A stretch of 10,603 nucleotides of DNA from UHGV virus genome UHGV-1818536; one strand, 5' to 3'. The translations under genes and the position numbers were made by a program. Below are positions 1 through 10,178 of the stretch, in pieces. The notes under the pieces are model-generated. The model was not told where the DNA came from and ran no database searches. It saw nothing but the letters and a program-made list of their open reading frames with translations. Source of the DNA: a virus. Position 1 is the stretch's first letter. Each line of letters opens with the position of its first letter.

Positions 1-425
1 TCTTCGCGTGTGGCGCTGTAAAACGTCACGTCATCCACGCCTTTGAAGTATTTCTTGATGGTTCCTACACGCTTAAGGCCAATCATTGCGCAGTACATCT
101 GCCCGTGGCGGAATTTGCGCGCAGCGAACGATGTGACGCACTGAACGGTGGTGTTAGTCAGAATGTATCGCCAGAACGCCAGCCCGATTTCCTTGCTGAA
201 GCCGCGAATCTCTGGCAGGTACATGGCGTGGCAATCGAATGTCAGCGGCTGAATCTCCTGATAGTAAACAATGCCGCCGAACTGCCCGTGCACGTTCACC
301 TCAAAGTAACGGCATTCAGGCTTGTAGTCGTATCCATCACCGTTGTTGCTACCGGCGATAATGTCGGGGTGATTTCCCACGGCTTCTATCAGGTCGATGT
401 TTCGCGTTGGTTTGAACTGAATCAT
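1..425 (-). CDS. 14: P22 gp14-like protein (ejection/assembly-associated), N-terminal ~141 codons; 3' end runs off the window
   Basis: ATG at 425-423 overlaps the tail-needle stop (TGATG); GGAG lies 5 nt upstream. My own translation of the minus strand is open to position 1 and begins [61 protein letters not shown]..., which matches my recollection of P22 gp14 and its position directly after the needle gene. Not in the supplied ORF track because it is truncated by the window edge. Confidence 0.8.
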   Translation of the reverse strand, partial: MIQFKPTRNIDLIEAVGNHPDIIAGSNNGDGYDYKPECRYFEVNVHGQFGGIVYYQEIQPLTFDCHAMYLPEIRGFSKEIGLAFWRYILTNTTVQCVTSFAARKFRHGQMYCAMIGLKRVGTIKKYFKGVDDVTFYSATRE

Positions 426-1378
426 CACTGCTCCGCGATTATCTTGATGGTTGTGGCAGTAAACGCCGCACCATTTGACTGAATGGTTAACGTGCTGCCA
501 TTTGTGGCAAGAAAGCCGTCTTTATCCACGCTGAAGAACGTAGCTAACAGGATGTTGTCGGTTGTTGTCGCCGCATTACGACTGCTGACCAACGTGTCAG
601 GAACAGAGCCGGAAAAGGTTAGCTGCATTGACCTGTTGGCGGTTCCGCTGGGCCACGTCCCGACAATCGACAGCTTGAAGAACAAGGTTTTGTTCTCGTT
701 GAACACAACCATCTTGTTGTTAACGGTGTCGAAGAATGGTGCCAACGTGCCGGATGACGGCGTGAGCGTTTTCAGCAGGCTAACAAGGTTGGTCGGCGCT
801 GTCGGGATGGTTACAGATACGCCAGAGTAAACAACCTCTGACTTCTTGCGAGTAGTGGCATACTCAAGCGCAGATATTCTTGTTGAGTGATCACCAACTG
901 TGCTTTGTAGCGTCGAAATACTTCCCTCTGCCGCTGTGAGCCTGGTATCAAGTGCGTCGATATCGGTTGTATTCTGAGTTATGCGCGCATCATGGTTTGC
1001 TAACTCAGATTCATTGGCAGCAATTCGCGTCTCGTGATCAGCCAGCTCTGTTTCAGCAGCCGTAATCCTTGTTTCATGATCTGCAAGAGTGCTTTCCGCT
1101 GTTGCGATTCTATGTTCATGATTGACGAGAGTTGCTTCAGCAGCAGCAATTCTGGATTCATGGTCTGCAAGGGTGGCATCCTGCTCATCATTCTTCACCT
1201 GTGCATCATAAGCCCCCTTCCCTGCTTCGTTGGCCTTGTTAGCCACGTTACCAACATCAGTGCCCTGTGCGATAACGTAAAGCAGATACGACTGCGAGAA
1301 GATATTGCGTGGAAGGACTGATGTGTCGAGCCGTGTAGCCTGAATGATTACCGGCACATTGAGATTCGAATCAGCCAT
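425..1378 (-). CDS. 26: Tail needle (P22 gp26-like), 317 aa: conserved N-terminal gp10-docking region, repeat-expanded trimeric coiled coil, and a C-terminal knob-like domain absent from P22 gp26
   Basis: The N-terminus [43 protein letters not shown]...[13 protein letters not shown] resembles P22 gp26 as I recall it. ATG at 1378 overlaps the gp10 stop (TAATG), with AAGGA 7 nt upstream. Residues ~67-125 are 14-aa repeats ([14 protein letters not shown] / [14 protein letters not shown] / [14 protein letters not shown] / [14 protein letters not shown]). The C-terminal ~130 aa are Thr/Ser/Gly-rich and beta-like. Length is 317 aa versus 233 aa for P22 gp26. Confidence 0.9.
1016..1190. repeat. Four imperfect tandem ~42-bp in-frame repeats inside the tail-needle gene, each encoding a 14-residue (two-heptad) coiled-coil unit
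   Basis: Units visible by eye: gcaattcgcgtctcgtgatcagccagctctgtttcagcagcc / gtaatccttgtttcatgatctgcaagagtgctttccgctgtt / gcgattctatgttcatgattgacgagagttgcttcagcagca / gcaattctggattcatggtctgcaagggtggcatcctgctca. Boundaries are approximate. The repeats account for the spurious opposite-strand ORFs at 1000..1191 and 1034..1321. Confidence 0.7.
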
Positions 1379-7934: not shown

Positions 7935-9434
7935 TTAAGTTCTCCGTGCGATGGGCCTGATTGGGGCTGGTATCTTTTTCTCTTTTGGTTTTTTGATGTC
8001 GCGCATCATTTTTGCGAAGCGGCGCATCATGTATGCATAGCGAACGGCTGAGAGAACGTCGTCGTTAAGCTTGACGATTTTCCCGTTTTCATCACGGTGA
8101 TAGAGGCGGAACTCCTCAAAGAATGGCTCACAGGTGTTGAATACTTTGAAGCGACCATCAAGCATCATGTCGCGCAATTCAGTGATGCCAGGCTCAACAG
8201 CATTACCGCCATCAGGCCATGTCGCATGCTCCTGCAACATCATAAAACCAGCTTCCGCGTACTGCCCTTTAAGCTGCTCACCGCCGCCCTTCTCGTGCTG
8301 GTTTCCGTCATGAGGCCATGCGGTTGGCACTTTATGCGCCCATGATTTAACTGCTCCCCACGCCTGAACGGCTGTTTTTTCTTTCGCCTTCCACACGCGT
8401 GAAACGTAGATTGTGTCTGCATCCTTATCCCACCAAAGCTGAACCTGCGCCTGTGGGTGATCCCATCCGAAATCAATCCCGCCAATTACGTAGAAGTGAT
8501 CAGGACACTCGAACGGCTGACACTTAATCGTCTCTTCCGGTATCTGGAAGATTCGACCACTACCCATCGTAGGAATACCGCGAGCACGCGCCTCTCTCTC
8601 ATGCTCTGGATAGGATGCGATGATTTGCTCTTTCTGCTCGTCGGTGTAGTGCTCAGCGTCATAGATGGTCATGTTGACCACTTTCTGCGACTTGCTGGGA
8701 TTCTTCAGGAACTTGGTAACAACGTCAGACATCCCCATCAGCGGGGTAAACGTCAGAATTGAGAATTGCCCGTATTTGTTGGTACGGGTAAGACCTTCGC
8801 CATAAATGCTGTATGGTGGCTCTTCGTCAAACCACACGCCGTGGATTGTGTCACCCTGCCAGCGAGCGCGGCCTTGCGAGTATGGTTTGAAGTAGCAGAT
8901 TGAAATGCCATCTTCAACGCCATCAGCCGTGTGATGCTTAACCAGAAGATGATCAACAAGGTTCGGAAAGAAAGGAGACTTCTTCCAGCTAATGATGTCT
9001 TCTTTCGGTATGGAACCGTAGCCAGGCTCATCATTCTCTTCGATACGACCGCACAGGATGCGTTGAGTCGTTTTGGTTACAGTCTCGTTTGTCTCGCCAC
9101 CAATCCAGAAAACAACAGGCTCATAGACACGCTTCCCTTTCCACTCACCGCCATATATACCATCAGCAGGATAGCCTTTTGTGCCCGGATAACGCCCGGT
9201 AAGGTGAAACGCGACTTCAGCAGCACCAGTAAATGACTTACCAAGCTGGTTACCAGCCATAAAACATCGCTCTGGATAGTCATGTCCGGCGTCGATGAAC
9301 TCACGCTGTTTGCTGTATGGCGTAAATTCATATAGCAGGTGTGTGTTCCGGTAGTTCTCTTCTTCTTCGAGTAGCTCGAGCAATTCGATTTGCTCTTCGT
9401 CGCTCAGGTTATCAAGAATCGCGTCCAGTTCCAC
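7935..9434 (-). CDS. terL: Terminase large subunit, P22 gp2-like, 499 aa (ATPase plus nuclease)
   Basis: 499 aa, the P22 gp2 length, with start (M)[28 protein letters not shown]... and a Walker-A-like AGNQLGKS near residue 60. The start codon is GTG at 9434-9432 (I read the bases directly), with AAGGAG 10 nt upstream. There is no in-frame ATG between the upstream stop at 9494 and residue 59. The gene overlaps the 3' end of terS by 23 nt. Confidence 0.95.
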
Positions 9435-9900
9435 GGTTGAATAGCTCCTTGATACGAGAGCGCCGCTTATCGCGATCTCCCTTATCAGGTGTCACGTCTT
9501 CAACTTGCGACTGCTCTTTGAGGCCCAAATCACGGGCGATGATGTTAGCGTTGAGAAGGTCAGCGGCTGCGCCAGAGAATTTCTGGTCGTAGATGATGTC
9601 TTCCGCTCGTGATGTGACGTCAGAAAAACCTTCCATTGACCGGAAGGTTCCCCATGTTTGCCTGGTGATATCAAGGAAGGTGCACAATCCTGAAATAGTC
9701 ATGGCTCGCATCTTAGGGACATTAGCCTTAATTATTTCTCCCTGATATGAAAATACCTTACCCTCCCATAGCGGGTTATCATCAGCCCACTCGAAGTATT
9801 CACAACAAGCAGCCCACAGCGCCTCAGGCGATTCGAATTTAGGGTTTCGCCCATGACTACTGCGGGCCTCCCAGAATCGGTTGCCCTTTGGTGCTGCCAT
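9412..9900 (-). CDS. terS: Terminase small subunit, P22 gp3-like, 162 aa
   Basis: The track ORF starts at 9906 (MNMAAPKGN...). The second ATG, at 9900, gives 162 aa (the P22 gp3 length) and has better spacing (6 nt) from a GTGAG Shine-Dalgarno-like element. The N-terminus [38 protein letters not shown] and C-terminus ...[37 protein letters not shown] match my recollection of gp3. Confidence 0.9.
9612..9633 (-). other. Position homologous to the P22 pac site inside terS (candidate packaging-recognition region, apparently divergent)
   Basis: The coding strand here reads GAAGGTTTTTCTGACGTCACAT. The P22 pac site as I recall it is GAAGACTTATCTGAGGTCGTTA, giving 14/22 identity at the equivalent codons. 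Whether this acts as a pac site cannot be judged from sequence. Confidence 0.3.
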
Positions 9901-9935
9901 ATTCATCTCACTTAATCGTTATTTCAGGTTGAGCA

Positions 9936-10178
9936 TCATGCTCCGGTGGTGAACAGGTCTAACGCTTCCTTCGATTTACGCACCGCTTCGAATGTGCGGA
10001 TCGTGATATCTGAATTAGCGCCGCCTGACTGGAAGTGAATTTTGAATAGCTCAAGCTTCAGCTCGTCAGTGCCAATGAATTGAAATGCTTCCTCTGCGGC
10101 TGCGTTCTGGTTCATGACCAGTTTGTAAATCTCTAACTGGAATTTCTGTTCTTCAGTCATGGGAATAATCTCTGCCAT
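9936..10178 (-). CDS. Conserved hypothetical protein, 80 aa, immediately upstream of terS (position and length match the 'orf80' of P22-like phages as I recall it)
   Basis: ATG at 10178 with GGAG 6-7 nt upstream. The protein MAEIIPMTEEQKFQLEIYKLVMNQNAAAEEAFQFIGTDELKLELFKIHF... is small, acidic and helical. It lies in the same orientation as terS, 29 nt upstream of it. Confidence 0.7.
   Translation of the reverse strand: MAEIIPMTEEQKFQLEIYKLVMNQNAAAEEAFQFIGTDELKLELFKIHFQSGGANSDITIRTFEAVRKSKEALDLFTTGA

Follow-up and report, generated by a model that had tools for sequence, protein, structure and literature searches.

The packaging-initiation site of a headful phage, together with the specificity with which that site is recognised, sets the host DNA that the phage carries in generalized and lateral transduction. 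A first-pass annotation of a 10,603-nt stretch of viral DNA (UHGV-1818536; the whole stretch is hereafter called the window) had described a small terminase gene, terS, with P22-like ends and a divergent centre holding the equivalent of the P22 pac site, and had proposed that packaging in this phage probably begins at a pac sequence different from that of P22. The question raised by this locus is whether the centre of terS was acquired by exchange and, if it was, whether it brought another pac specificity with it.

The window covers a head-assembly region that belongs to a phage or prophage of the P22-like group (Lederbergvirus); all genes lie on the minus strand, in the order orf80 (DUF2560), terS, terL, portal, scaffold, coat, gp4, gp10, and tail needle. 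Over its whole length it is approximately 97% identical to the E. coli phages IME10, APC_JM3.2, Louie, Dewey, Bas106, and HZ41 and only approximately 80% identical to P22. In a sliding comparison with P22, a block of 93-100% identity was found from orf80 to approximately nt 900 of terL, broken only by the missing P22 orf59c and by a patch in terS; outside this block, identity is 65-80%, and the part of terL that encodes the nuclease domain and the portal, scaffold, and coat genes all fall in this lower range. The coordinates of the features are collected in Table 1. At 9907..9935 the window has no counterpart of orf59c, which separates orf80 from gene 3 in P22, and the gap between the orf80 homologue and terS is only about 30 bases. 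The junction in terL was placed at nt 900-930 of the gene (window ~8505..8535), in the linker between the two domains (domain limits taken from PMC11728703).

Table 1. Features of the window and of the APC_JM3.2 comparator; identities, dS, and dN are relative to P22.
Feature	Coordinates	Strand	Description
Tail needle (gp26 homologue)	425..1378	-	317 aa; 233 aa in P22
terL (large terminase)	7935..9434	-	499 aa; Pfam Terminase_6N and Terminase_6C; chimeric relative to P22
terL, nuclease part	7935..~8505	-	aa 313-482; 80% protein, 74% DNA identity
terL, ATPase part	~8535..9434	-	aa 1-300; 99% protein, 95.8% DNA identity
terS (small terminase, gp3 homologue)	9412..9900	-	162 aa; ORF 9412..9906
terS, C-terminal block	9412..9596	-	nt 305-489 (aa 103-162); 99.5% nt, 100% aa identity; dS 0.02, dN 0
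terS, exchanged cassette	9597..9785	-	nt 116-304 (aa 39-102); 64.0% nt identity; dS 1.34, dN 0.34
Sub-segment C2	9597..9690	-	aa 71-103; HTH-like helices and pac-coding loop
22-bp pac equivalent	9612..9633	-	GAAGGTTTTTCTGACGTCACAT; coordinate transfer from BK000583 and epsilon34; 15/22 identical to P22
Predicted pac core	9616..9632	-	AAGGTTTTTCTGACGTC; starts at gene nt 269, coding strand
Sub-segment C1	9691..9785	-	aa 39-70; end of helix 25-41 and beta-hairpin
terS, N-terminal block	9786..9900	-	nt 1-115 (aa 1-38); 97.4% nt, 100% aa identity; dS 0.14, dN 0
orf80 homologue (DUF2560)	9936..10178	-	PF10834; 96% nt identity to P22 orf80; marks where the P22-like block ends upstream
APC_JM3.2 terS	L176 (MG197996) 802..1290		P22-type cassette on the backbone of the window

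The terS product matched PF16677 (GP3_package), the family of P22 gp3, over profile positions 1-105 of 105 with a score of 106.7 bits (cut-off 29.4), and aligned gaplessly from end to end with the solved P22 gp3 chain 3P9A, which has the same length (82% identity, 162 aa, E = 1e-90). The coordinates and the peptide reported in the first-pass annotation were correct. Two in-frame ATG codons are present, one at 9900, equivalent to that of P22, and one at 9906. The latter is used in the IME10 record (164-aa product) and the 162-aa start in P22 and most other records; a GAG-rich Shine-Dalgarno-like stretch fits ATG 9900 better, judging by its spacing, and would be too near to ATG 9906. The 3' end of terS overlaps the start of terL by 23 nt. 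The tail of P22 TerS (aa 140-162) binds the TerL N-terminus (aa 1-58) (PMC9611059). This tail is identical in the window protein, and residues 1-58 of TerL are 98% identical to those of P22; with tail and N-terminus both kept, the window terminase is predicted to form a holoenzyme of the P22 type.

Alignment of terS with P22 gene 3 (AF217253) gave 72 nucleotide mismatches and zero indels. Of the mismatches, 68 fall in nt 116-304, whereas nt 1-115 contain only 3 and nt 305-489 only 1. The protein agrees with P22 gp3 at every one of residues 1-38 and 103-162, and 29 of the 64 residues between them differ. Identity to P22 is thus far from uniform along the gene, and the mosaic described in the first-pass annotation is borne out segment by segment (Table 1). 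Substitution rates were estimated by the Nei-Gojobori method with P22 as the reference. Synonymous divergence is near saturation in the patch (dS 1.34) and is only 0.02-0.14 in the flanks, from which an imported cassette, not local drift, is deduced; with a dN/dS of approximately 0.25, the patch has the appearance of an old divergence under purifying selection that lies between recently shared flanks.

The boundaries of the cassette are abrupt in both nucleotide and synonymous divergence, and alternative cassettes occur on one backbone. The E. coli phage APC_JM3.2 shares 95-100% identity with the window over the stretch compared, which begins at orf80, spans terL, and reaches into the portal gene, whereas nt 116-304 of its terS are of the P22 type (97.9% identity to P22, 64% to the window). 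The backbones being nearly identical, these two E. coli phages differ by exactly the terS cassette, and APC_JM3.2 provides a natural isogenic comparator. The same cassette type was also found in Pseudescherichia and Pantoea prophages (L097 and L099) with evenly diverged flanks, which makes them a pointer to the kind of lineage from which the cassette came.

Divergence of the centre in place, by rapid or diversifying evolution and without horizontal exchange, might be suggested by the fact that, across the family, the TerS protein varies most in its centre. This explanation is nevertheless very improbable in view of the near-saturated dS of the patch beside its flanks, the low dN/dS, the sharp boundaries, the near-isogenic sibling with the alternative cassette, and the presence of the same cassette type in other genera with different flanks. 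Synonymous constraint on the flanks does not rescue it, since flank wobble positions of terS vary freely across the family. An assembly chimera or a sequencing artefact is a negligible prospect, given that an identical or nearly identical terS allele is present in 9 phage isolates, the identical TerS protein in at least 75 IMG/VR contigs, and the patch, with an identity of at least 95%, in 146 of 5426 complete E. coli genomes (approximately 2.7%). The IMG/VR scan was made with the single protein and returned only identical or 99% identical copies, so that its count informs prevalence and not diversity. The dS contrast and the prevalence in E. coli genomes were taken to exclude both of these explanations.

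The allele has been deposited repeatedly. Across the whole gene, those of IME10 (gp3), HZ41, E212, EC.P3, Bas106, Louie, and Dewey share 99.0-99.6% nucleotide identity with the window and encode an identical protein, and the IME10 allele shows no material difference from that of the window. No analysis of the mosaic structure or the pac site of the IME10-type allele was found in searchable papers. The phenomenon itself is known, as the first-pass annotation had noted: segmental exchange of terS in P22-like phages is documented in PMC4669245, which cites Leavitt et al. 2013, and it resembles what is observed here. The window terS is a mosaic of a known kind and a widespread, already sequenced allele; what was claimed to follow from it for pac specificity is probably incorrect. 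The study of Leavitt and colleagues reportedly centred on Sf6-type TerS, a family different from that of the window protein.

The cassette comprises 189 nt, and the protein domain and the pac equivalent are linked inside it and exchanged together. Its secondary structure was placed on an AlphaFold (AF2) monomer model, in which C1 and C2 take the positions given in Table 1 with low confidence (mean pLDDT only 60). The 29 differing residues accordingly fall in the hairpin and the HTH-like helices, and the charge changes from P22 to the window in the latter are L80R, E81Q, R84G, R89M, and D91G. Positions of HT (high-transducing) mutations in gene 3 were sought in the literature and none was found. 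One such mutation, which may lie near residue 81 (Q in the window, E in P22), was given no weight.

The annotated pac of P22 (BK000583 4..25, gene 3 nt 268-289) is GAAGATTTATCTGAAGTCGTTA, and the epsilon34 annotation agrees on the position. Transferred to the window, this interval lies within the cassette, inside the divergent centre as the first-pass annotation had stated. The match of 14 of 22 positions that it reported holds against the variant GAAGACTTATCTGAGGTCGTTA of phages L, epsilon34, and UAB_Phi20 and not against P22 itself (Table 1), and the comparison had evidently been made with a phage L-type pac. Of the 7 bases that differ from P22, 3 are at degenerate positions of a 17-nt core (G4, T8, and C14) and 4 are immediately 3' of it, where GTTA in P22 is replaced by ACAT. 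The 22-bp pac is said to have been defined genetically by Wu et al. in 2002, and that interval spans these 4 bases.

The bases critical for pac function were derived from PMC11260489 only. In that work, nine host chromosomal sites are packaging starts for P22 terminase, two of them validated on plasmids (PMC11260489 Table 1), and a four-base synonymous pac mutant, pac-wobble, cripples self-packaging. The nine sites share A1 (A2) G3 ... T11 G12 ... T16 C17 within a stretch of 17 nt whose other positions are degenerate, with no conservation among them in the bases 3' of the 17-mer. A weight matrix was trained on the nine host sites alone, all phage sites being excluded, and its scores report what P22 TerS tolerates, not what the window TerS requires. 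All invariant or near-invariant positions (A1, A2, G3, T11, G12, T16, and C17) are kept in the window site, and G4, T8, and C14 are each present in several functional host sites. The window core scored 23.4 bits, the Emek-type site 21.8, the P22 pac (P22 genome L178, position 5..21) 21.2, the phage L pac 18.9, the nine host sites 12.8-20.1 in leave-one-out scoring, and the inactivated pac-wobble mutant 8.9. The native pac of P22 is not the top match to the host-site consensus of its own terminase, and some Pantoea and Tatumella sites reach 23.4 bits as the IME10-type site does.

The core is the sole strong match in the window, the next best scoring 11.0 bits; none of 200 shuffles reached its score, and the exact tail probability of that score is P = 3.5e-10 per position. 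Across the 39.6-kb genome of IME10, too, it is the only strong match (next best 14.9), as is the native pac in the P22 genome (next best 15.6). The coding of EGFSDV in the window ranks 1 of 768 synonymous codings on the matrix, and that of EDLSEV in P22 ranks 1 of 1152. The site has the gene position, the orientation, and the conserved core positions of the P22 pac and carries the bases needed by P22 terminase. Base changes that P22 terminase would not tolerate were sought in the window site and none was found, and the site did not emerge as a distinct pac-specificity class. The proposal of a pac different from that of P22 was thus not sustained: the invariant core is kept, the score is above that of P22 (23.4 against 21.2 bits), and the coding is the best available. 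A plain mismatch count across the 22-mer is a misleading guide to specificity, since no more than about half of its positions are informative.

The main alternative is that the cassette is a specificity module with a cognate pac, such that P22 and the window phage could not use one another's sites. It draws on the linkage of domain and site in a single cassette that is exchanged as a unit, on the extent of protein divergence (29 of 64 residues, several of the changes altering charge in the HTH-like region), and on the 7 of 22 differing pac bases. A published rule takes more than 90% identity to mean the same specificity (PMC2629481), and at 82% the window TerS would be flagged as possibly different. 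The matrix moreover shows the tolerance of P22 and not the need of the window protein, and how P22 TerS reads pac is itself unresolved, specific binding not having been demonstrated in vitro (PMC9611059). Against this stand the retention of every invariant core position, the occurrence of the variant bases G4, T8, and C14 in host sites that P22 terminase uses, the matrix score above that of the P22 pac, the family-wide maintenance of the motif at synonymous positions whatever the cassette type, and the assortment of C1 independently of C2 and pac. On balance, this alternative was considered unlikely, albeit well above the two explanations dismissed earlier. A specificity of the window TerS that is shifted relative to that of P22, yet overlaps it, is conceivable, as the 29 changed residues and the charge changes among them could narrow or shift its pac preference.

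The explanation preferred here, which is held to be probable from sequence comparison, is that terS is a recombinant whose cassette derives from a diverged lineage, that its pac core still belongs to the P22 recognition class, and that the site in its own gene is used. The ends of the gene are of the P22 type, and codons 39-102 would come from another lineage of this family that diverged long ago, relatives of which are seen in the Pseudescherichia and Pantoea prophages. The exchange probably occurred by homologous recombination in the near-invariant coding sequence on either side, bringing in the beta-hairpin together with the HTH-like helices and the pac site (codons 90-95). Because the core is in the same recognition class as the P22 pac, the terminase most likely recognises AAGGTTTTTCTGACGTC within its own gene; TerL would then cut near the site, with headful packaging towards terL (lower window coordinates) as in P22. 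A packaging start at the predicted core (Table 1), as a P22-class site with this direction, is thus the likely case, and compatibility with the P22 site would be expected to follow. Packaging in the manner of P22 is supported by the P22-identical C-terminal tail of TerS and the near-identical (99%) ATPase domain of TerL. The deposited genomes of the allele and its close relatives are opened at the terminase gene by convention and not at mapped ends.

The TerS family comprises 4960 homologues. To sample its diversity, a scan of genome contigs with alignment was used, which yielded 80 homologous loci, each species being represented by one genome and the taxa extending from Enterobacterales to Rhizobiales and further; these were codon-aligned together with the phage alleles. 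From the alignment, 74 sequences with pairwise nucleotide identity below 85% were retained, which are not phylogenetically independent, and it was calculated for each codon how often two sequences with the same amino acid also use the same codon. This synonymous-codon identity was 0.99, 0.86, 0.90, and 0.97 at codons 90, 91, 92, and 95, respectively, and 0.77 or less at all remaining codons of terS, which is a strong contrast. In 57 of the 74, codon 90 encodes E, K, or Q, and its third base is then always A; codon 95 encodes V or I, with C as the third base in 73 of 74; and the third base of codon 92 is T in 55 and C in only 3, although other Phe codons of the gene favour TTC. The wobble pattern of codons 90-95 reflects selection on DNA rather than on protein. 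The conserved frame is xAA GRT TTT nnn nnn RTC (window 9616..9633; loci L096-L175 and phages), and the top matrix match is at nt 269 in the gene of almost every homologue. The conservation extends to GC-rich Rhizobiales, and the central CTG of the core is kept in an enteric subset that includes P22 and the window.

Within the family, C1 and C2 are combined independently of each other. Serratia fonticola alleles combine a P22-like C1 with an IME10-like C2, Emek combines a C1 of its own with an IME10-like C2, and the IME10-type C1 was seen only in the IME10-allele cluster and its Pseudescherichia and Pantoea relatives. The TerS proteins of the Salmonella phage Emek type and of Serratia, Tatumella, and Pantoea prophages resemble the window protein in C2 (85-91% amino-acid identity) and in the pac class, which is EGFSD(V/I) in protein and AAGG(T/C)TTTTCTGAC(A/G)TC in DNA, but their C1 (hairpin) half is of a different type.

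A bolder reading of these data, offered tentatively and in our judgement rather doubtful, is that the pac core is an ancient DNA element of the gp3 family, maintained from Enterobacterales to Rhizobiales, and that its reader is a conserved part of the terminase and not the cassette. If so, the candidate base-specific readers would be the near-invariant N-terminal arm or the invariant helix of aa 104-127, and cassette swapping would be driven by a cause other than pac, for example, escape from satellite or defence proteins that bind TerS.

Some consequences depend on the less far-reaching conclusion that a common E. coli allele uses a P22-class pac. In that case, knowledge gained with P22 about pac-like hotspots in host DNA would be transferable to E. 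coli, and the phages concerned should be able to initiate packaging at one another's pac sites. The conserved core and the natural isogenic cassette pair together offer a handle on which part of a P22-type TerS reads pac, and the deeply conserved, codon-optimised core and the pair formed by IME10-type phages and APC_JM3.2 may be worth specialist attention.

Several minor observations were made in the course of the analysis. In the tail-needle gene, window 426..1147 is without a nucleotide match to P22, and a search of the gene for tandem repeats found none; the C-terminal knob of its product is of the Sf6 type (PF16532, E = 1e-107). CCG replaces AAG at the start of the motif in L138, L141, L154, L157, L159, L161, L168, L172, and L173, which are alphaproteobacterial and other loci. 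The CCG-type loci, plus one with CTG, have an extended N-terminus of another kind, ..G(R/K)F(L/V/T)(P/K/Q)GNRFWE, replacing MxAPKGN. A possible covariation of this arm with the start of the motif was not counted as evidence, as the CCG loci look like a single lineage and L145, L155, and L169 are exceptions. Finally, a terS 100% identical to that of the window was found in L096 (JAUVQU010000080.1), a 9.7-kb contig of a MAG labelled Cellvibrionaceae, which is probably mis-binned or derived from a contaminating enterobacterial phage.
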